From: a virus
Taxonomy: Duplodnaviria; Heunggongvirae; Uroviricota; Caudoviricetes
DNA length: 8,277 nt
Direction: 5' to 3' (one strand)
Virus record (IMG/VR): IMGVR_UViG_2534681993_000039
Span: 1 to 8,277 of that record
Positions 1-8,277 of the stretch are shown piece by piece (the first letter of the stretch is position 1; the number at the start of each line of letters is the position of its first letter). A program made the translations under genes and the position numbers. The notes below the pieces were generated by a model that saw only the letters and a list, made by a program, of their open reading frames with translations, had not been told where the DNA came from and did no database searches.

Positions 1-240
1 TCAAACTTTTTTTGAGCTGATTTGTGTCACAGGTAACATCTCATCATCAGCCCATGCGGCCAGTCGGTAAGCCTCTGCCGGATTCATTTTCAGAAGTGCC
101 AGCCCGGCCAGAAAAGCCACGCGTTGGCCGCTTTTGCGGGCTTCCGGTGTAAGGCTGTCCAGCCAGGCGCATGCTTCGCTTTCGTTCTTGACGGCCGCAG
201 GCTTCAGATAGAAACTTATCCGTCTGGTTGGAGTCGTCAT
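1..240 (-). CDS. ParR-like ribbon-helix-helix centromere-binding protein, short form (79 aa)
   Basis: ATG at 240..238 preceded by AAGGAG (rc of 248-253), 7 nt spacing; stop TGA is rc of 1-3. The N-terminal 55 aa (RRISFYLKP...LDSLTPEARKSGQRVAFLAGLALL) resemble my recollection of plasmid R1 ParR (RRTIAFKLNP...LDSIPQGERSRLNRAALTAGLALY). Sits 4 nt after the parM stop, the usual parM-parR arrangement. The 124-aa ORF-track version from 375 overlaps parM and has no homology in the extra part. Confidence 0.6.
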   Translation of the reverse strand: MTTPTRRISFYLKPAAVKNESEACAWLDSLTPEARKSGQRVAFLAGLALLKMNPAEAYRLAAWADDEMLPVTQISSKKV

Positions 241-244
241 TGGT

Positions 245-1204
245 TTACTCCTTGTCCATTGCGTACAGCCCATTAACCAGAGCAAACTGTGGCACCCCGT
301 CCGCGATGAAAGTCGCATTAACTCCGCAGGCTTCGCGGATAGCGGGTGCCACAATCTCCGCCCCTCCACCGACAACCATCACCCGCCCGTAACCCGAAAA
401 ACCCGCCAGCGCGCGGATCACGCGTTGTTTCAGTGTTTCTTCCTTTTCACGAATTACCGCCATCAGGCTGGCGTAATGCGCGTCATTGTGGATGTGCTGG
501 CGCAGCCAGGCTTCATCATGGCGATGTTCGATAATGGTATTGGCGATGTGGTGACTGGTGCGCATACCGTTAGTGGCCATCACCGACAGTACGGCATCGG
601 CCATCAGAGAAACGCCCACGTGTGGATCGCAAAACACCTGGCTGATACCTGCCAGTTGCCCCTGAACCTTTGCCACATCCAGCGTGGTTCCGCCCAAATC
701 CACAATCAGCAGGGATTCAAACGGACTCATGTCAGCCAGTGCCTTAAAGCCAGCCGGAATGGATTCAGGCATAACCCGTACGTTACGGATAGTGAATGCT
801 TCGCCGTTCTGGTACTCCACCGGGCGCATGACGTTCGCTTTTTTGCGGTTGATGTTGGCCATGTCCGGCTGTGCGTTTGTATCGAAATACTCGCTCAGTG
901 GCAGGGTGACAACCACATCCACTTCCTGTGGTGTGATGCCTGATTTGACCAGCGCGTGATGAATGGCAATTATATTCACATCGCTGTACTGGTATTGCGT
1001 GTCGGTCGTCTGGACAAAGCGATCGCTGACCGGATCAAAACCATAGCGCACGCCATCAAGCATGTAGTTCGCGGGCTGCGTGCCACCGAACGGCGCAGAC
1101 CATTCCGACTTGAAGCTGTTCGGGCTGATGGCGTTGCGGCGTTCGCCGTTCTCAGTCCATGCCAGCTTGATGTTGGTGGAGCCGTCGTCGATACAAATTT
1201 TCAT
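245..1204 (-). CDS. parM: ParM/StbA-family actin-like segregation ATPase (319 aa)
   Basis: Full-length ORF; ATG at 1204..1202 with AAGGA 8 nt upstream on the - strand. N-terminus MKICIDDGSTNIKLAW, internal VMPESIPAG and LLIVDLGGTTLDV, and C-terminal VMVVGGGAE match the actin-fold phosphate/adenosine motifs and align along the whole length with plasmid R1 ParM as I recall it. Confidence 0.85.
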   Translation of the reverse strand: MKICIDDGSTNIKLAWTENGERRNAISPNSFKSEWSAPFGGTQPANYMLDGVRYGFDPVSDRFVQTTDTQYQYSDVNIIAIHHALVKSGITPQEVDVVVTLPLSEYFDTNAQPDMANINRKKANVMRPVEYQNGEAFTIRNVRVMPESIPAGFKALADMSPFESLLIVDLGGTTLDVAKVQGQLAGISQVFCDPHVGVSLMADAVLSVMATNGMRTSHHIANTIIEHRHDEAWLRQHIHNDAHYASLMAVIREKEETLKQRVIRALAGFSGYGRVMVVGGGAEIVAPAIREACGVNATFIADGVPQFALVNGLYAMDKE

Positions 1205-1222
1205 GTCGCTTTTCCTTATGTT

Positions 1223-1256
1223 GATTAATTAATCGGTTACAGGATTTTTAAATCCC
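1223..1256. promoter_or_regulatory. palindromic elements in the 76-bp A-parM spacer
   Basis: Perfect 12-bp palindrome GATTAATTAATC at 1223-1234; inverted repeat GGATTT/AAATCC at 1242-1255. They lie 10-30 bp upstream of the parM ribosome-binding site. Confidence 0.3.
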
Positions 1257-1280
1257 GCTTTTGCCTGTTTTGTGCGCGCT

Positions 1281-4103
1281 TCATATATCGCGGCACGTTT
1301 TTTGCTCATTTACGGGATTTGTGAGTCCCGTTTCTGTCTGTTTTTTGTTTCCACTGGTCAGGCTACCCCGCAGCAGGTCTGCTTTGCGGTGGGCGCGTTC
1401 AGTGGTTTCACTGATTCTCTGTGCGTGCTCTGCGTCACGGATGGCGCGCAGCATGTCAGAAAGCACGGTAACGGGGGTTTTCATGGTGTTCTGGTCCTGC
1501 TGAAGTGTGGATGCCAGGTGTGCGGCGGCTTCGGGGTCTGATGCCCCCAGCTGTTCCAGATAGCTGGCGACCGGGTTATGGCGGATCTCCGTGCTGCTTA
1601 CGCCGTGATTACGGCTCAGGCGCTGCCAGAGTTGCGTGATTCGGCTGTCCGGGCGGGTATCTGGTTTGCGTACAATTTCAAATCCCTGCGGTGCAATGAT
1701 GCTGCCGTCAACGTACAGACTGCCGCCCCGTAACAGGTGCTGCATCTGCTGTTCACCGATATGCAGGCCGAGAGATTCAGCAGACTCCCGCCATTCTTTA
1801 GCGAGTAACTCGTGGTTATCAGGCAAAGGCCGTGGCTGTTTGCGGCTCTGTGTCCAGTTCTGCATTTCATCACTGCTGTTTTTTGCCTGTTTGTCACGCA
1901 GCGAACGCATCAGCGCCCGGCGTTCGTGCCGTTTCAGTGAGCGCATCCATTCGTTCACTTCAACGCCGTCAGGGAGTTGCGGCCACGGTGTTGTCCGTTC
2001 TTCCGGCTGTTCTGTCCCGTTGTTGTTCGTTTCCTGTACACGGGGACAGTTATTGCCACGAGTCCAAGGGGCGGCAGGGCCGCCCTGAAGGTCAAAACCA
2101 TTTTCGCGGGCGCTGTCTTCCGCTTCCGGTTTACGTCTTATCAGCTTCCAGTTATCCGGATGTGTGCACACACGGGAAGACTCCCCGATGAGTGGTGACC
2201 AGATCCCGTAAATCTGTACATTCTGTTCGCCGTAATCGTTCGGCTCATCTGCGAGGTCGTAGGCGGTGCGAATCAGGTAGTCTTTGCGTGGAACAAGTAC
2301 GCCGCCCTGTTTTTCAATGTAGGAGGCAAAACACCCGGCATCAGCGGCAGCGAGCACTGCATCCATTGCGTCATCCTTCAGCCGTTGCGGGCCTTCCTGG
2401 TTGCGTGCCATCTGGTTGGCAAGGCGGCGCAGTTCACGCCACACCTGACGGGAGGGGATGCCAAAGAACTGGAACTGGCGGACCCGGTGAAGGCGCGCCC
2501 AGCCGATGGCGCGCTCCACGCTCTCGGCCATTGATTTTCCGGTTTCGTGGTCAACGCGTGGCTTGCCCGTTTTCGGGTCGATACCATCCACGGCGCGGCT
2601 GTCCAGGTTCTTTCCGATGTAGGTGGCGATGTAGCTGGTTGGCGTGCCTTTTGAGCCGTCGACATACTCCACCTTAAAGCGCGGAGTAATATCATTGCCC
2701 AGCTCGTGGCGGTCTTCCTGAATGGCAATATCGCGGGTATGGGACACAATGGTGTCGATTTCTTCCGGATGTGCAAAGACCATCATATGCCAGTGCACGG
2801 TGCCGTCATGATGAGGCTCCACCGTGCGGATGCCATACCAGCGCAGGCCGTCGCGGTTCAGTTTTTTGCGGACCGCCGCAAAAAACGTGTTAACCAGGTA
2901 ATCGCTGGAGTCGCGCATTGTGGCCCCGTTCCATTTGGGATTTGGATGACCGTTCTCCGTTGTGGCGTGGTATTTTGACGGGCAGGTGACAGTCAGAAAC
3001 ACCGCTTTGTCGCCACGGGCTTCGGCCAGAAGTTCCAGCCCCTTCATGGTGGCCATCATTTCTGCCTTACGGTGAACCGGGTTACTTACTCCCGCGTAAT
3101 ACACCGTCTCGAGATCAATCGTGAACCCGTCTTCATTTTCCAGCATGAAACTTTTCAGGAAATCGCGTGTTTTCTCGCGCTGTGCGCGAAACTCGCTTAA
3201 CGCGTCCTGGCTCAGATAGGGTGATGTTTTTCTGGAAACCAGACAGGCGGCGCGGAGTTGTTCTTCCCGCCACTCGCAACGTAACAGCCATAGTTTGCGT
3301 TTCCACCATTCCGCACAGGTCAGGCGAAGGATTGCGCCCGGCAGCAGCTCCGTGTCCGGTTCGTTCCTCCGGTCTTTGTCTGTTGTCAGAGCGTCATAAT
3401 GTGGAGGCATGGCGTGCAGGTGTAACGCCATGCGGGCCAGCATCTGATACGCCTTCAGCGTTACATCCATGGTCAGCTCGCCATCGGTCGCGCCAAAGCC
3501 ATCGCAGAGTTTTTCAAAAGTGCCACTGAACATCGCCGCCGTCATGGTGGCCAGCGTCTGTATCTGGTGTTTGTTGAGCTGCGGCAGGTAAAGCAAATCG
3601 TCCAGGCGTTCGCGTCCGGCAAGGGAGCGATAACCCGGTGTCAGCCAGCGGTGATCGGTGCGCTCCAGACGTTCGAATATTTTGCGCAGGGTCCCACGCG
3701 CATAGCGTTCTGCCTGCCTGGCGTTTTTTCCTTTCTGACGATCGGCTTCCTGTTTTTTGCGCAGGAAGGAGAGGTGGCGAATAAGCGGATCGCGCAGATA
3801 GGACGGCAGCAGGCGCAGCGAGGCCATGGCTTCATCCACCGCGCAGCGTGCCTGTTTTCTGGCGTCTCCTGCCAGTGTGATGGTTTTGTCCTGTTTTTCC
3901 TGTGCGTCCAGGCTTTTATTAATCAGGTTGCCCAGCGGCGTGGCGGAGAACGCCGCATCAGCCATTTCCTGGCGGCGCTCGTTCTCTGCCCGGTAGGCAT
4001 CCAGCCAGGAGGAAAGCGCGGATTCAGGAGCGGGGATCCCCGTTCCTTCACGCCCCACTGCGTGGCGCGGTTGTTGCCAGTCCCTGATGTACTCTGCCGT
4101 CAT
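1281..4103 (-). CDS. GpA-family (P2 A / phiX174 A superfamily) rolling-circle replication initiator endonuclease, 940 aa
   Basis: Single 2.8-kb ORF. HUH motif VEPHHDGTVHWHMMVF (HWH codons at 2795..2787) and tyrosine pair YIATYIGKNLD (Y codons at 2633..2631 and 2621..2619) as in phiX174 A and P2 A; also FLTVTCPSKYH upstream. Start ATG 4103..4101 lies 6 nt after the stop of the upstream gene. Confidence 0.9.
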   Translation of the reverse strand: MTAEYIRDWQQPRHAVGREGTGIPAPESALSSWLDAYRAENERRQEMADAAFSATPLGNLINKSLDAQEKQDKTITLAGDARKQARCAVDEAMASLRLLPSYLRDPLIRHLSFLRKKQEADRQKGKNARQAERYARGTLRKIFERLERTDHRWLTPGYRSLAGRERLDDLLYLPQLNKHQIQTLATMTAAMFSGTFEKLCDGFGATDGELTMDVTLKAYQMLARMALHLHAMPPHYDALTTDKDRRNEPDTELLPGAILRLTCAEWWKRKLWLLRCEWREEQLRAACLVSRKTSPYLSQDALSEFRAQREKTRDFLKSFMLENEDGFTIDLETVYYAGVSNPVHRKAEMMATMKGLELLAEARGDKAVFLTVTCPSKYHATTENGHPNPKWNGATMRDSSDYLVNTFFAAVRKKLNRDGLRWYGIRTVEPHHDGTVHWHMMVFAHPEEIDTIVSHTRDIAIQEDRHELGNDITPRFKVEYVDGSKGTPTSYIATYIGKNLDSRAVDGIDPKTGKPRVDHETGKSMAESVERAIGWARLHRVRQFQFFGIPSRQVWRELRRLANQMARNQEGPQRLKDDAMDAVLAAADAGCFASYIEKQGGVLVPRKDYLIRTAYDLADEPNDYGEQNVQIYGIWSPLIGESSRVCTHPDNWKLIRRKPEAEDSARENGFDLQGGPAAPWTRGNNCPRVQETNNNGTEQPEERTTPWPQLPDGVEVNEWMRSLKRHERRALMRSLRDKQAKNSSDEMQNWTQSRKQPRPLPDNHELLAKEWRESAESLGLHIGEQQMQHLLRGGSLYVDGSIIAPQGFEIVRKPDTRPDSRITQLWQRLSRNHGVSSTEIRHNPVASYLEQLGASDPEAAAHLASTLQQDQNTMKTPVTVLSDMLRAIRDAEHAQRISETTERAHRKADLLRGSLTSGNKKQTETGLTNPVNEQKTCRDI

Positions 4104-4109
4104 AGTGAT

Positions 4110-4475
4110 TTACTTCGTCATGCCATTCAGGGTGTCGCGGCAGACTGTAGCCAGCCGCTGAATTTCCAGCACGGTGTCTTCTGTGTCGGCATGGCGATGT
4201 GTGATGCGGATGCTGTCGGCAATCACATCGACGATTGCAGAGGATGGGCGCTGGTAAATGCCAACAACGGACGGGGTGCCACCTTCAATGCGGTAAAGCC
4301 TGTAATTTCCCTCGTGGCTGTCAATCATGTAGCGACCATCAATAACAATCTTTCCGTCAGCGAGCTGCGGTACAGGCAGGGATTTCAGGTACATGTCATA
4401 ACGTTCCCGCACGCGAACGGCAAGATCACGCTCTGTGTTGAGCAGGTATTCAAGAAAGTCGTTGGCGAGAATCAT
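4110..4475 (-). CDS. hypothetical early protein (121 aa), translationally coupled to the replication gene
   Basis: ATG 4475..4473 with AAGAGGA 8 nt upstream (rc of 4476-4492); stop TAA 6 nt before the A start. No family recognised. Confidence 0.6.
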   Translation of the reverse strand: MILANDFLEYLLNTERDLAVRVRERYDMYLKSLPVPQLADGKIVIDGRYMIDSHEGNYRLYRIEGGTPSVVGIYQRPSSAIVDVIADSIRITHRHADTEDTVLEIQRLATVCRDTLNGMTK

Positions 4476-4616
4476 TGCGGCAATCCTCTTGTTACAGATG
4501 TGCGAAGGCCTCCCGCCACAAGGTGCAGGAAAGGCCCGGAACAGGAATTAATGGAGTTTGTTTTGCTGCCGGATGAGCTGCTGAAGCCCGACGTGGTTTC
4601 CGGCAGTTGGAGGTGC

Positions 4617-4862
4617 TCATGCTCTGATTTCCCTCAGTAGCTGGTTGAACATCTGGGTTAGTGGGTTGCTACACCCAAACGGCATCGGGTTTACCTGATA
4701 AGAAAAGCGACCGCCTGTTTTGCGCTCTTTTCTTATGACTGAACCGCTGCGCCAGAGACGGCGTAGCTCCACATTAATGGTTGTGGTTGGTGTATTCAGT
4801 GCTGCGGCGATTTCTCCACCGCTACAACCCGGATTGGCAGCGATGTAGTCCAGAATGGTCAT
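4617..4862 (-). CDS. small putative winged-helix DNA-binding protein (81 aa)
   Basis: ATG 4862..4860 overlaps the upstream stop (ATGA). ILDYIAANPGCSGGEIAAALN...INVELRRLWRSGSVIRKERKTGGRFSYQ looks like a helix-turn-helix followed by a beta-hairpin wing; fold-level inference only. Confidence 0.5.
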   Translation of the reverse strand: MTILDYIAANPGCSGGEIAAALNTPTTTINVELRRLWRSGSVIRKERKTGGRFSYQVNPMPFGCSNPLTQMFNQLLREIRA

Positions 4863-5062
4863 CTGCGTGATTCCTGTACCTGTCTGATAAGATTCACCTG
4901 CACCACGTTGGTGGCGCAGAAGTAAGTGCCGTCAGTGAGATAGATGTGATGTGCATCCTTTTCTGAACTGTGTTTGTCGATTGTGGTAATCAGGCGTTCG
5001 TCAACTTCGTATTCACGTCCTCTGGAGGTGAAACGAACGACAGGAAAATGCTTAATTGCCAT
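4859..5062 (-). CDS. hypothetical protein (67 aa)
   Basis: ATG 5062..5060 preceded by a strong AAGGAGG (rc of 5063-5078); the ORF-track 84-aa form starts further upstream without a ribosome-binding site. Overlaps the downstream gene start by 4 nt. Confidence 0.5.
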   Translation of the reverse strand: MAIKHFPVVRFTSRGREYEVDERLITTIDKHSSEKDAHHIYLTDGTYFCATNVVQVNLIRQVQESRR

Positions 5063-5156
5063 TACGCCTCCTTGGCGTGTGCGAATACCTCCGCGAATGC
5101 GGATTGTTTTCACATTTTCTTATTTAACCTGGGGGCTTATTTGCGCGGTTATTCTT

Positions 5157-5186
5157 CAGTGAAAAAGCGTTCAATCTTTTTTACTG
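5157..5186. repeat. A/T-rich inverted repeat in the 195-bp intergenic gap
   Basis: CAGTGAAAAAG (5157-5167), 8-nt spacer, CTTTTTTACTG (5176-5186); arms match 10 of 11. Confidence 0.35.
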
Positions 5187-5258
5187 AATTAATAATTCGC
5201 ATAATCCCAATGGCGCAGACCACCGAAATAATCAGAACAAGCCATGAGATAAATATAC

Positions 5259-5501
5259 TCATGCGATATTTCCCAGCTTATACGGTTCAATATGTTCCCC
5301 GCATTCTGCGGCACAGATCAGCTCGGAAAGTTCGTTAAGTGCATCCAGGTCATCAGCGTAAAAAGCCACGTCATACAGACTTCGGATTGCTCTGGTCAAT
5401 GAGTCACGGGCCGCACGTTCAGCATGAGCGCCTGATGCACTTAAGCGAAAATAAAAACGCTCAAGTGCTTTGTTAATGAGAGTTTTATATTCTTTGCCCA
5501 T
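5259..5501 (-). CDS. hypothetical protein (80 aa)
   Basis: ATG 5501..5499 (the ORF-track first codon is GTG one codon upstream); AGGG 8 nt upstream; begins 11 nt after the stop of the preceding gene. No family recognised. Confidence 0.45.
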   Translation of the reverse strand: MGKEYKTLINKALERFYFRLSASGAHAERAARDSLTRAIRSLYDVAFYADDLDALNELSELICAAECGEHIEPYKLGNIA

Positions 5502-5512
5502 CACAACGCCCT

Positions 5513-5800
5513 TTAATCTGCTTTCTGTATTTCAGCTTCTGAATCCATACAAATAATTTCGATATAGGGTTCATCGCCATTAACCTGGCGTGCCTTTTCA
5601 GCTTCGCTAATGATTTCTCGTACGGTCTGGTACGGAAGTTCCACAAGCAGTCGCGTGCCGTTCAGATAAACGTAAGTGGCTTCGTCGGCTCCGTTTTTAC
5701 CCGCCGGAGTCACTCCGTCAATAGCGGATGCACGTAATAACAGTTCACCGCGACAATCAATAAAACGGATAAATACACCTTGTGCATGGTCTTTGGTCAT
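5513..5800 (-). CDS. hypothetical protein (95 aa)
   Basis: Internal ATG 5800..5798 with AGGTG ribosome-binding site (rc of 5801-5815) chosen over the ORF-track start at 5914, which would overlap the upstream gene by about 100 nt. No family recognised. Confidence 0.5.
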   Translation of the reverse strand: MTKDHAQGVFIRFIDCRGELLLRASAIDGVTPAGKNGADEATYVYLNGTRLLVELPYQTVREIISEAEKARQVNGDEPYIEIICMDSEAEIQKAD

Positions 5801-5810
5801 AAAGCACCTG

Positions 5811-6149
5811 TTATAAATCAGCCTGTTTAATAAAACTTTGCCCGCGAAGCAGACGATCAACCGTGCGAAGTGCTTCGTATAATGTGAAATCCTGCCCGAA
5901 CTGATTGTCACCACAGCTCAATGCAAAAATGCGGTTTCCGGTAAACGGATTGCGTGGGCATTTGTGGATCACGATTCCAGCTTTCTCAATCAGCCAGGCG
6001 TGCTCGCCGATTTGTTTTACTGGGTAGCCATCCGGCGTTGCGTGTGTATCACTCAGGCTGTAGCGGATGTTGCTGCGTGATGCACTGGTAGTGAAACGGT
6101 TAGCGTGGCGTTCTGTTCCGGTACGAAAATTACGGCGTTGCTTCAGCAT
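5811..6149 (-). CDS. hypothetical early protein (112 aa)
   Basis: ATG 6149..6147 with GAGGTG 7 nt upstream; lies immediately downstream of the cox-like gene. No family recognised. Confidence 0.55.
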   Translation of the reverse strand: MLKQRRNFRTGTERHANRFTTSASRSNIRYSLSDTHATPDGYPVKQIGEHAWLIEKAGIVIHKCPRNPFTGNRIFALSCGDNQFGQDFTLYEALRTVDRLLRGQSFIKQADL

Positions 6150-6163
6150 AAAATGACACCTCG

Positions 6164-6442
6164 TTATTTTGTCATCTGCACGTATTTTTCTGCGCTCCTG
6201 ATTGTTTTCAGGAAAAGAGCGAAGAGATTTACTGTGCGTCTTGAGTTCTTTTCATCCTGGTTGATGGGAATTGAACCTCTGTCAGCCTGTCTTTTCACTG
6301 TGTTAACAGCTTGGTTGGTACGCTTTGCGTAATCTTTCAGGCTTTCTTCAAGTACTGGTAACCCATGCTCATCGCGGTAGGGATAGAACGCTGCTAAACG
6401 CTCAAAGTCTGCCTGTTCGTGTGTGTTCAGGACTTTTGCCAT
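6164..6442 (-). CDS. small DNA-binding protein in the Cox/Apl position (putative lytic-switch regulator or excisionase), 92 aa
   Basis: First gene of the - strand operon, divergent from the repressor gene. DYAKRTNQAVNTVKRQADRGSIP resembles a helix-turn-helix. No clear similarity to P2 Cox as I recall it, so the call rests on position and size. Confidence 0.5.
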   Translation of the reverse strand: MAKVLNTHEQADFERLAAFYPYRDEHGLPVLEESLKDYAKRTNQAVNTVKRQADRGSIPINQDEKNSRRTVNLFALFLKTIRSAEKYVQMTK

Positions 6443-6538
6443 GTGTGATAACCTGCGCTATCTGTGGTTGTTTGTGACTCGGTGTACTTATAAGTACACC
6501 TTGTGCGCAAGCTTAGTGTACTTATAGGAACACTGTCA
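6443..6538. promoter_or_regulatory. divergent switch/operator region between the cox-like and C-like genes
   Basis: 96-bp intergenic region. Perfect 20-bp palindrome GGTGTACTTATAAGTACACC at 6481-6500; related imperfect palindrome AGTGTACTTATAGGAACACT at 6515-6534; both share the direct repeat GTGTACTTATA, centres about 34 bp apart. Candidate - strand promoter: -35 TTGACA (rc of 6534-6539), -10 TAAGCT (rc of 6510-6515). Candidate + strand promoter: -35 TTGTGC 6501-6506, -10 TATAGG 6523-6528. Confidence 0.5.
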
Positions 6539-6847
6539 ATGCTTATCGGTGAAAAAATTAGAGTGATTCGTGAATCAGAGGATTTAACGCGCGAAGAATT
6601 TTGCGGCCTGATTGATGTGCCTATCGGCACTTTGCGTCGTTATGAAACGGGGCGGATTGAAAACATAGGGGGCGAAGTGCTTATCAAGATTGTTAATCAC
6701 CCTCGCTTTTTTAAGTACATGAATTGGCTTATGACGGGAAAAACAAATGAGGCTGCTGGGCAGATCAGTCCGTCTCTCTCCCCTGATGGGCCAAAAAGCA
6801 CATCGCCTTCTCAAAAATCCCGCAAGACTGGTACACAGCCCGGCTAA
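6539..6847 (+). CDS. P2 C-like immunity repressor (102 aa)
   Basis: GEKIRVIRESEDLTREEFCGLIDVPIGTLRRYETGR...PRFFKYMNWLMTGKT...GQISPSL parallels P2 C as I recall it (GEKI, VP.GTL..YE.GR, KY..W.MT, GQI.P.L). ATG 6539 chosen; the in-frame GTG at 6503 is an alternative. Followed by int on the same strand, as in P2. Confidence 0.7.
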   Translation: MLIGEKIRVIRESEDLTREEFCGLIDVPIGTLRRYETGRIENIGGEVLIKIVNHPRFFKYMNWLMTGKTNEAAGQISPSLSPDGPKSTSPSQKSRKTGTQPG

Positions 6848-6853
6848 TCATGG

Positions 6854-6888
6854 AACGCTGGGGGCATGGTGGTCTTGTAACGCTGGGG
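6854..6888 (+). repeat. 10-bp direct repeat AACGCTGGGG x2 in the C-int spacer
   Basis: Exact copies at 6854-6863 and 6879-6888; the second ends 8 nt before the int ATG and may supply its ribosome-binding site. Confidence 0.4.
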
Positions 6889-6896
6889 TTTCACGA

Positions 6897-7871
6897 ATGA
6901 GCATAAAATCAATTCCGGGAGGGTATCTTCTTGACATGCGCCCTGAGGGGCGTAAAGGCAAACGCATTCGCAAAAAATTTAAAACGAAATCGGATGCAGT
7001 TTTATATGAGCGGTGGGTGCTGGCGCAACAGCATAACAATGAGTGGAAAGGAAACTCCATTGATCGCCGTCCGCTGTCAGTGCTTATTGACTTGTGGTGG
7101 AAATACCACGGCCAGCTAATGAAGTCAGGGCATAACATGCGCCTTAAATTGCTGCGCTTGAGTGAGGCAATGGATGACCCGTGCGTGCATAAACTTAATA
7201 CAACGATGCTCACCGAGCTACGTGTGTCCAGGATAGAGCAGGGGATACAGCCCAGCACCATAAATCGAGAGATTGGGGCGTTAAGCGCGATGTTTACCGC
7301 ACTCATCTCATCCGGCCATTTTCTTAACGATAACCCCGTTCAAGGCCTTAAAGGAATGAAGGTTAACGAGCGCGAAATGGGATATCTGAGTAAGTCTGAA
7401 TGTGTTCAGTTGCTGGATGCACTGGCTGAAAATCCCGATGAACGGCTGGCTGTCGAAATCCTTCTGTCGACCGGGGCGCGATGGGGCGAGGTAGCGGCAC
7501 TGGAGCAGCGCCGTGTTCTTCATTGTCGAATCACTTTTTCAAAAACGAAGAACAGCAAAAACCGTACCGTTCCTATTTCTGAAAGCCTGTTTGAAAAGAT
7601 CAAAAAACGGGGCGGGAAACTGGTGTTTCCGACGCTGGATTATCCATTGGTTCGCGATGTCATCAAAACGGTCGCACCAGATGTTCCTGACGGCCAGGCT
7701 GTTCATGCGCTGCGCCACACCTTCGCCAGTCATTTCATGATGAACGGCGGCAATATTCTGACGCTCCAGAAAATTCTGGGGCACGCAAAGATTCAGACAA
7801 CGATGATTTATGCCCATCTTGCGCCGGATTACTTGCAGGATGCGGTGAGATTTAATCCTATTGCTGGGTAA
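6897..7871 (+). CDS. int: P2-like tyrosine integrase (325 aa)
   Basis: N-terminus MSIKSIPGGYLLDMRPEGRKGKRIRKKF and C-terminal catalytic region HALRHTFASHFMMNGGNILTLQKILGHAKIQTTMIYAHL (R, H-x-x-R, H, Y) follow P2 Int closely as I recall it. Start set at ATG 6897; the ORF-track start at 6747 overlaps the C gene and precedes the region of homology. Confidence 0.9.
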   Translation: MSIKSIPGGYLLDMRPEGRKGKRIRKKFKTKSDAVLYERWVLAQQHNNEWKGNSIDRRPLSVLIDLWWKYHGQLMKSGHNMRLKLLRLSEAMDDPCVHKLNTTMLTELRVSRIEQGIQPSTINREIGALSAMFTALISSGHFLNDNPVQGLKGMKVNEREMGYLSKSECVQLLDALAENPDERLAVEILLSTGARWGEVAALEQRRVLHCRITFSKTKNSKNRTVPISESLFEKIKKRGGKLVFPTLDYPLVRDVIKTVAPDVPDGQAVHALRHTFASHFMMNGGNILTLQKILGHAKIQTTMIYAHLAPDYLQDAVRFNPIAG

Positions 7872-7881
7872 GGAGGATGTT

Positions 7882-8277
7882 GTGGAAAAAACAGTTAATA
7901 GCGATTTGCATTTAGGTCAGTACTGGAGAATAGACATTGTATGCGATCCAGAACTTCGAGATGAGGTTGAGCAATATTTTTCTCTACACGATGTTGGTTT
8001 TAGCAAAATTGAAGTTTTTTCCGTCGAAAATCCATATAAACTTGCTCTGTTCTTTGATTTCGCGAAGAAGGGTGTGGAGGTTGCAAAAGCCATTATGGGA
8101 CTCTTAGACCGAAATGATATTGAAATAACGATGTATCGTGCTACGGACAGTAGCCCGCAGTCTGTAAAAAGCATCAAATTGCGTAAGTCTGAAGACGTAG
8201 AGAAATGTAAAGATTTGCTTAGTACGTGTGTCGCAATTGGCGTTCAACGAAATAAGGAAAAAGAGGGGAGCGAATGA
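7882..8277 (+). CDS. hypothetical AT-rich protein (131 aa) translationally coupled to int
   Basis: AGGAGG at 7871-7876 overlaps the int stop codon (TAA 7869-7871); GTG start at 7882, 5 nt downstream, in frame with the ORF-track reading. GC about 40% by hand count against 55-65% in int and A. No family recognised. Confidence 0.55.
   Translation: MEKTVNSDLHLGQYWRIDIVCDPELRDEVEQYFSLHDVGFSKIEVFSVENPYKLALFFDFAKKGVEVAKAIMGLLDRNDIEITMYRATDSSPQSVKSIKLRKSEDVEKCKDLLSTCVAIGVQRNKEKEGSE

Follow-up and report, generated by a model that had tools for sequence, protein, structure and literature searches.

Two dyads in the leader of a P88-like prophage parM-parR cassette as a candidate minimal parC-like site

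The parM-parR locus and the dyads of its leader

Prophages of the P88 type carry a parM-parR partition cassette downstream of their replication gene A. Here we analyse the leader of this cassette in a stretch of 8,277 nucleotides, hereafter the window (positions 1 to 8,277 of the IMG/VR virus record IMGVR_UViG_2534681993_000039), which represents the early/replication region of a P88-like prophage (Xuanwuvirus, Peduoviridae, P2 family). By megablast, positions 1-6115 are 92-97% identical to phages P88, P884B11, 520873 and others. The first 1.7 kb is present in 1372 of 5426 complete E. coli genomes (~25%), and 1541 of the 1543 places in E. coli are chromosomal, the other two lying on plasmid records.

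The gene order is A, leader, parM and parR, all on the minus strand. Gene A (1281-4103, with its stop codon at 1281-1283) encodes a P2-type replication endonuclease of 940 residues (Pfam Phage_GPA, 2.3e-130) that is 31% identical to the P2 A protein over residues 92-689. Next comes parM (245-1204), preceded by the Shine-Dalgarno sequence AAGGA (1213-1217, minus strand), which was read from the sequence and is kept in all leaders. Its product is an actin-like segregation ATPase of 319 residues (Pfam StbA_N, 3.7e-82; ParM C-terminal domain, 1.3e-68) that matches the R1 ParM structure 1MWK with E=1.2e-92, so that the locus has the cognate actin-like ATPase of a type II (ParMRC) system. The last gene, parR/stbB (1-240), encodes a ribbon-helix-helix adaptor of 79 residues (Pfam Plasmid_stab_B, PF10784, 6.2e-24), whose family profile matches the pB171 ParR/StbB structure 2JD3 (2e-14). 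As judged from these matches, the ParM and ParR of the window are genuine homologues of the R1/pB171 type.

The initial annotation of this DNA had described a cluster of GGGATTT/AAATCCC inverted repeats with an AT-rich palindrome across 1205-1330. All three of its motifs were found where it had placed them: the perfect 12-nt palindrome GATTAATTAATC at 1223-1234, GGATTT-TT-AAATCC at 1242-1255, and CGGGA-N8-TCCCG at 1313-1330, within the last codons of gene A. The heptamer GGGATTT does occur in both orientations (1250-1256 on the minus strand, 1314-1320 on the plus strand), but the recurring unit is better described as two copies of one 16-20-bp dyad, ACGGGATT-N4-AATCCCGT, a consensus that we derived from 83 relatives.

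Both GGGATT-type dyads sit in a 38-nt direct repeat on the minus strand, delimited by repeat search and shuffling, of which the proximal unit lies in the A-parM intergenic spacer (1237-1274) and the distal unit in the 3' end of gene A (1310-1347); the two are identical at 30/38 positions and 73 nt apart. Read on the minus strand, the core of the proximal dyad (1241-1256) is GGGATT-TAAA-AATCCT, where the consensus of the relatives has GGGATT-TCAG-AATCCC, and that of the distal dyad (1314-1329) is GGGACT-CACA-AATCCC, where the relatives have GGGATT-CACA-AATCCC. Each dyad of the window carries one arm mismatch against the relatives' consensus, and both fit GGGAYT-N4-ARTCCY. An A-rich tract precedes the dyad in either unit, giving ACAAAAAACAGACAGAAAC-GGGACT-CACA-AATCCC-GTAA for the distal and CACAAAACAGGCAAAAGC-GGGATT-TAAA-AATCCT-GTAA for the proximal one. 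The dyads start 52 nt (proximal) and 125 nt (distal) before the parM ATG.

This arrangement exceeds what chance would provide. Among 1000 dinucleotide-preserving shuffles of 1205-1380, none produced an equally good repeat and none produced two like-armed 6-4-6 dyads. With at most one mismatch allowed, CGGGATT-N4-AATCCCG matches these two places only in the window and the two homologous places only in the 35.8-kb P88 genome. The heptamer GGGATTT/AAATCCC as such is also over-represented, at 7 copies in the window where 1.1 would be expected (a count of 7 was reached by 0/200 shuffles); five of them lie outside the par leader and form no dyads (1680-1686, 2937-2943, 4379-4385, 6815-6821 and 7430-7436).

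Linkage of the leader to the cassette and its conservation

The two dyads lie in a leader of ~176 bp (1205-1380, minus strand), specific to the parMR cassette and proposed here as a parC-like region, which we delimited by a homology breakpoint, an identity profile and A-tract phasing. It comprises the 76-bp A-parM spacer (1205-1280) and the last ~32 codons of gene A (1281-1380). The E. coli prophage NZ_OW967003, a relative sharing gene A with the window, encodes a Dam methylase and an AAA ATPase in place of parM-parR. Homology to the window ends there at ~1381, the A proteins of the two finish in unrelated tails of 32-33 residues, and no copy of the dyad was found in this par-less relative. 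In the comparison of the window with Hafnia, the identity profile climbs again at ~1345. The Hafnia A gene stops just past the distal dyad, not 30 nt further, and yet the nucleotide sequence of both units is kept, which argues that their conservation in Hafnia does not come from the coding needs of A. Because homology ends at ~1381 in the par-less relative, and because Hafnia keeps the units despite its earlier A stop, 1205-1380 is best regarded as the cassette's own leader, one that on these comparisons travels with parMR and not with gene A. The 3' end of gene A is itself a cargo-exchange junction at ~1381 (locus L086, NZ_OW967003, 652-3500), its last ~32 codons coming from the downstream cargo; gene A is an example of a replication gene that takes its C-terminal codons from the cargo cassette next to it.

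The A-tracts of the leader are helically phased, with a peak period of 10.75 bp whose power is reached by 13/1000 shuffles, and among 406 sliding windows those overlapping the leader rank first for this property. In the parC regions of R1-type, IncF and IncL/M plasmids the corresponding peak lies at 10.25-10.5 bp. A hidden iteron array in the leader was considered and rejected, as there is A-tract phasing only and no 10-11-bp lag.

ParM searches of genome and viral collections returned near-identical loci only, which we used for polymorphism, computing shallow diversity over 75 haplotypes. The consensus of both units, taken over 83-88 related loci, is AACGGGATT-N4-AATCCCGTAAA; its arms are 8 bp long, and its centre varies (CACA, CACG, TCAG, TAAA). 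Diversity in the arms is 0.039 (proximal) and 0.047 (distal), against 0.07-0.11 at the synonymous sites of parM and A, while that of the centres is 0.26 (proximal) and 0.09 (distal). The dyads are spaced 73 bp from start to start in 85/88 loci, the proximal one lies 52 nt before the ATG (51 in four loci), and every par-bearing leader has exactly two sites. ParM itself shows a diversity of 0.005-0.009 at codon positions 1 and 2 and is 94% identical between E. coli and Hafnia. Variants of the dyads are confined to single arms, with no compensatory changes; within the P88 group a test for compensation cannot separate a protein site from a hairpin, and this question was decided by the deeper lineages.

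At greater depth, the ParM search gave intermediates at 54-62% identity, and all four that we looked up are P2-like prophages with the cassette downstream of gene A. The ParR strand TRR(I/V)SFYL is found in four lineages, namely the P88 type, Hafnia L097, Hafnia L101 and Plesiomonas L102, whose ParM identity falls to 62%. The ParR proteins of L101 and L102 are only 37-39% identical overall and keep this N-terminal strand. The GGG-N10-CCC element occurs exactly twice in the leader of each of the four lineages: one copy lies at -51 to -59 and the other at -124 to -131 relative to the parM ATG, at a spacing of 72-73 bp (L102, 72 bp apart at -59/-131; L101, 73 bp apart at -55/-128). Outside these elements there is little left to compare, as the L101 and L102 leaders are ~0.6 identical to the P88 leader, which is background and the same as for unrelated leaders, and such a pair arose in 0/200,000 shuffles of each of the two leaders. 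The inner half-site bases differ in these lineages (GGGACA...AAACCC and GGGTTC...AATCCC), only 3-4 bp of the stems are left (at -3 to -5 kcal/mol, or -8.2 for one), the A-rich flanks that would form antisense T-tails are gone, and no terminator-like site was scored in either leader. Since L101 and L102 keep the elements with weak stems and no T-tails, what is conserved appears to be duplex sequence blocks and their geometry and not hairpin stability. The sites thus exist, exceed chance and are linked to the cassette, and their core, number, spacing and position are kept across deep divergence. We regard this persistence in diverged lineages, as read from their leaders, as the decisive evidence. 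A tblastn search of ParR against plasmids returned P88-like copies only.

The cassettes of Serratia and Enterobacter have the ParR strand NRKISFYL and no GGG-N10-CCC. Their leaders (L103:3380-3480 and L104:3350-3470) contain inverted repeats of 14-20 nt (GGGAAC..ATAGAAAAAT / ATTTTTCTAT..GTTCCC) around 26-28 nt, and may represent a second centromere architecture of the same phage family. By this comparison the architecture of the leader would change with the ParR clade. Extra direct repeats are also present there.

The AT-rich palindrome, singled out by the initial annotation, could not be upheld as a notable element: perfect 12-nt palindromes occur four times in the window against 2.4 expected, and palindromy is lost in Hafnia L097 and L101 and in Plesiomonas L102. 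As far as these lineages tell, it is incidental. The lineages share instead an AT-rich box (1221-1234, minus strand) with the conserved part ATTAATCAA (1229-1221), which is found 22-30 nt before the ATG in three of the four lineages (P88, Hafnia L101 and Plesiomonas L102) and may be a -10-like or other leader element. A symmetric double change of the palindrome to GGTTAATTAACC, seen in six loci, is anecdotal.

ParR varies in a pattern of its own. In the P88 group the first 14 residues are unchanged and the rest falls to 41-63% identity; the C-terminal tail N-I/A-x-x-L-F-P is fixed within the group and conserved across all lineages. The protein (1-240; loci L006-L098) is thus a mosaic whose ends (the first 14 and the last ~8 residues) are fixed and whose middle and linker go down to 41%, with ParM at least 95% identical; this points to a ParR core that is turned over by diversification or by recombination. 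In the window, parR has a run of T7 at 7-13 where the 99.9%-identical NZ_CP027591 has T6. The resulting +1 frameshift yields a protein of 79 residues, compared with 101-107 in the relatives, and removes the conserved tail, which we take to be the ParM-binding peptide known from R1 (compare PDB 4A62). Either the longer run is a genuine mutation that makes parR a pseudogene, or the homopolymer was misread in sequencing; if the mutation is real, the ParR of the window could keep DNA binding and repression at most, without coupling to ParM.

A candidate ParR-binding site weighed against other readings

The dyads are linked to the cassette, absent where par is absent, and persistent in deep lineages that share the ParR strand, and for these reasons we favour, with somewhat better than even confidence, the reading that the two dyads form a minimal and atypical parC-like site, bound by ParR and serving both as centromere and as operator. 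The initial annotation had proposed a centromere/operator of the ParMR module, and this much is borne out by the cassette linkage and by a core and a 72-73-bp spacing that are kept across diverged cassettes; its picture of short iterated repeats is not, given that the leader has no 10-11-bp periodicity. The site lies where a parC is expected, next to the parM-parR operon, and the principle of repeated sites is retained even though the array is not. An iteron array elsewhere had been named as the finding that would count against the proposal; no second centromere, such an array included, was found downstream of parR or elsewhere in P88.

On this centromere/operator reading, 1205-1380 would be the cis site of a type II (ParMRC) cassette, with the two GGG-N10-CCC dyads as its working parts. 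A distance of 73 bp corresponds to about seven helical turns, which would place both sites on one face of the DNA. ParR would bind each dyad, probably in the form of a dimer of dimers in which either dimer contacts one GGGAYT half-site, and the two bound sites would cooperate across the curved 73-bp spacer. The complex would then capture the ends of ParM filaments through the N-I/A-x-x-L-F-P tail, so that ParM polymerisation could move excised or replicating phage circles, and it would also repress transcription entering or starting in the leader. We infer ParR as the binder, its stoichiometry, the centromere activity and the autoregulation from the sequence comparisons above.

Several points weigh against this proposal. 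Autocorrelation detects no 10-11-bp sequence periodicity in the leader, unlike the parC regions of plasmids, where the relatives of the R1 family show arrays with this period. There are two dyads, or four half-sites, only, in place of an array such as that of R1 (10 x 11 bp) or pSK41 (4 x 20 bp), and two sites are perhaps too few for the ring or helix scaffold of the R1 and pSK41 ParR. No sigma-70 promoter scoring at least 9/12 was found in any leader of the TRRISFYL type (window, P88, Hafnia, Plesiomonas and others), so that the operator role has no promoter assigned to it; by eye, the ATTAATCAA box and ATGAGC-16-TATATG (1309-1282) are weak candidates at 7-8/12 that we do not claim. Within the P88 group our diversity estimates give the arms a modest excess of conservation, and the co-variation of leader and ParR would rest on just two ParR clades. 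Truncated ParRs of 57-96 residues are common in the protein database. Finally, the element is an integrating prophage, for which the need of a centromere is not obvious.

The last point bears on function, and here we are more tentative. That a two-site centromere, together with an R1-type ParM and ParR, segregates or positions excised or replicating circles of a P2-family phage is on the present comparisons a possibility that we put forward with some doubt. If it does, an integrating phage would have a transient plasmid-like state that is actively partitioned, and an adaptor of the ParR family would build a working segrosome on four half-sites, with no iteron array. Two dyads at a fixed spacing would also turn into a testable question why an integrating P2-like phage present in ~25% of complete E. 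coli genomes keeps a partition machine. The machine might, for instance, segregate excised circles, position DNA during its replication as in CGP3, or serve an episomal carrier state. A hint of the last comes from NZ_CP148288.1 (L100; 34,461 bp), a 34-kb record from a cat E. coli isolate, which contains a complete P88-like phage from integrase to tail genes, with parM-parR, and was deposited as a circular, non-mobilisable plasmid. This circular record could stand for a phage living as an episome, or it could be the assembly of an excised or induced form. Although the genes of the P88-like ParM and ParR are routinely annotated, in the literature that could be searched, neither their cis site nor their role was found described.

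The dyads might instead be ParR operators and nothing else, used for autoregulation or for insulation of parMR downstream of an early operon, with no function as a centromere; the module would then have lost the ability to segregate phage DNA, or never have had it. Two dyad operators are typical of ribbon-helix-helix repressors of the Arc/Mnt/CopG type, the element is almost always integrated, and parR genes lacking the ParM-binding tail are frequent, that of the window among them. However, ParM is strongly conserved and the ParR tail is kept across all lineages, which indicates that the interaction of ParM with ParR is under selection, and the promoter that such operators would regulate could not be identified in the leaders searched. 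We consider a purely regulatory role unlikely.

It is also conceivable that the dyads bind another protein altogether, either a host factor or a phage regulator (a MarR-like winged-helix protein, Cox or C). A 16-20-bp dyad would suit many dimeric helix-turn-helix proteins, the AT-rich box can be likened to the AT-rich sites of host factors, and the assignment of the dyads to ParR is an indirect one, drawn from linkage and conservation. Against this, the sites are absent from the relative that has the same A gene and no par genes, no further copy occurs in the P88 genome, the C/Cox control region included, the sites follow the par cassette into phages with strongly different A genes, and the layout changes when the ParR strand changes. 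Such a binder seems to us improbable.

Nucleic-acid hairpins offer a further reading, in which the units are antisense intrinsic terminators, or sense mRNA stem-loops that process or stabilise the parMR message. The pattern of a terminator on the plus strand is present in both units of P88 and Hafnia L097, and in the window at site 2 only; the stems, 6-8 bp long, have folding energies of -7 to -11 kcal/mol (z-scores -2 to -4), and conserved arms around a variable centre would fit a stem-loop. However, the deeper lineages speak against it, since L101 and L102 keep GGG-N10-CCC but have the shortened stems described above and have lost the T-tails and with them the antisense pattern; on the sense strand the dyads have no U-tract in the first place. 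For the window, folding does not predict the proximal hairpin on the antisense strand (z=+0.88), each of the common arm variants disrupts the pairing of one of the two strands without compensation, neither an antisense promoter nor an Rfam family was found (a search of 1-2200 at E<=5 gave no match), and the fixed 73-bp spacing would have no role. We therefore hold a hairpin function to be very unlikely. Hairpins are frequent in the wider region, with 12 terminator-like ones in P88 (L092) at 8500-11400 against 4.2 expected, nine of them on the strand antisense to the A-parM-parR cargo; this excess may stem from the A-rich composition of the sense strand, or from protection against read-through of the late P-Q operon across cos.

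The suggestion of the initial annotation that the rolling-circle origin at which the A protein nicks lies at 1205-1330, which had in its favour that the P2-family origin lies within gene A and that the distal dyad lies within the A reading frame, is almost certainly wrong, because the homologue of the P2 nick site maps elsewhere and a relative that shares gene A does without 1205-1380. The annotated nick site of P2 is at record position 29892 (L002:4893), at about codon 620 of gene A, and its peptide SGIAAPRSPVNNCGKL aligns with residues 674-689 of the window A protein, that is, with window positions 2037-2084. At the DNA level the window has GCCGCCCCTTGGACTCGTGGCAATAACTGT where P2 has GCCGCGCCTCGGAGTCCTGTCAATAACTGT. 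Protein and DNA alignment together define a P2 nick-site homologue at 2037-2100 (minus strand), which is not part of the par element. It coincides with a 60-nt block that is 100% identical between E. coli and Hafnia inside a region of 70-75% identity, and megablast matches of the window to distant P2-like phages (Klebsiella, Salmonella and Yersinia) are limited to this same stretch of ~50 nt. Because the P2 nick sequence, its peptide and the conserved block all map there, the origin is placed at ~2037-2100, 700-800 bp from the repeats, and a tempting mis-assignment is corrected; comparison with the P2 origin, as the initial annotation had proposed, leads to this place and not to 1205-1330. An origin, being essential in cis, should moreover be present in all phages sharing the A gene, whereas 1205-1330 is absent from NZ_OW967003. 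The P2/186 origin and the par leader do have in common that both are cis sites within the A frame of a P2-family phage, but they share no sequence similarity, and phages that share gene A but lack par have no such leader.

Comparison with known operators and partition systems

The operators of ribbon-helix-helix repressors of the Arc/Mnt/CopG type are dyads of ~16-21 bp. A dimer of dimers occupies each of them, and roughly one helical turn separates the centres of the half-sites. The dyads of the window resemble them in symmetry and length, while these operators have no role in coupling to a motor.

Among actin-based systems of integrated elements, the alpS/AlpA/AlpC module of the CGP3 prophage offers a functional parallel: an actin-like filament and an adaptor, which binds repeats upstream of its own operon, act on excised DNA and support its replication (PMC4446434). 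It differs from the cassette of the window in having the adaptor gene first and 24 short TTAAnnG repeats, and its AlpC and AlpA fall outside the ParM(R1) and StbB families. A closer parallel in layout is srpC of the SXT/R391 integrative and conjugative elements, an experimentally bound type II centromere with four repeats in two pairs, whose srpMRC system has been suggested to act on the excised circle, a transient form (PMC4489591). Like the leader of the window, srpC belongs to an integrating element, lies upstream of an actin-like gene and has few repeats, and its half-sites alone gave no stable binding. Unlike in the window, SrpR has no detectable homology to ParR/StbB, the 13-bp repeats differ in sequence and arrangement, and the carrier is an integrative and conjugative element and not a phage; the srpC centromere was tested by experiment, whereas the site in the window is predicted from sequence.

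The parC of plasmid R1 measures 159 bp and has 10 direct 11-bp iterons upstream of parM-parR (PMC2241845). The leader of the window is like the R1/NR1 parC in its position upstream of parM-parR, in the structural family of its ParM (E=1e-92 to 1MWK) and its PF10784 ParR, in its size (~176 versus 159 bp), in phased A-tracts that imply curved DNA, and in its bipartite layout. In R1, however, two blocks of five direct 11-bp iterons flank a clear promoter, while the leader of the window has two 16-20-bp dyads, no periodicity and no recognisable sigma-70 promoter, and is half overlapped by the 3' end of a replication gene. The parC regions of R1-type and IncL/M plasmids (L088 and L090) likewise show repeats at lags of 72-73 bp (repeat spacings 72-73, autocorrelation 0.43-0.44), and the lag shared with the plasmids may reflect a common geometric constraint. 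If the two dyads do act as a centromere, the range of type II centromeres served by the R1/pB171 family of ParR would extend from long iteron arrays to four half-sites.

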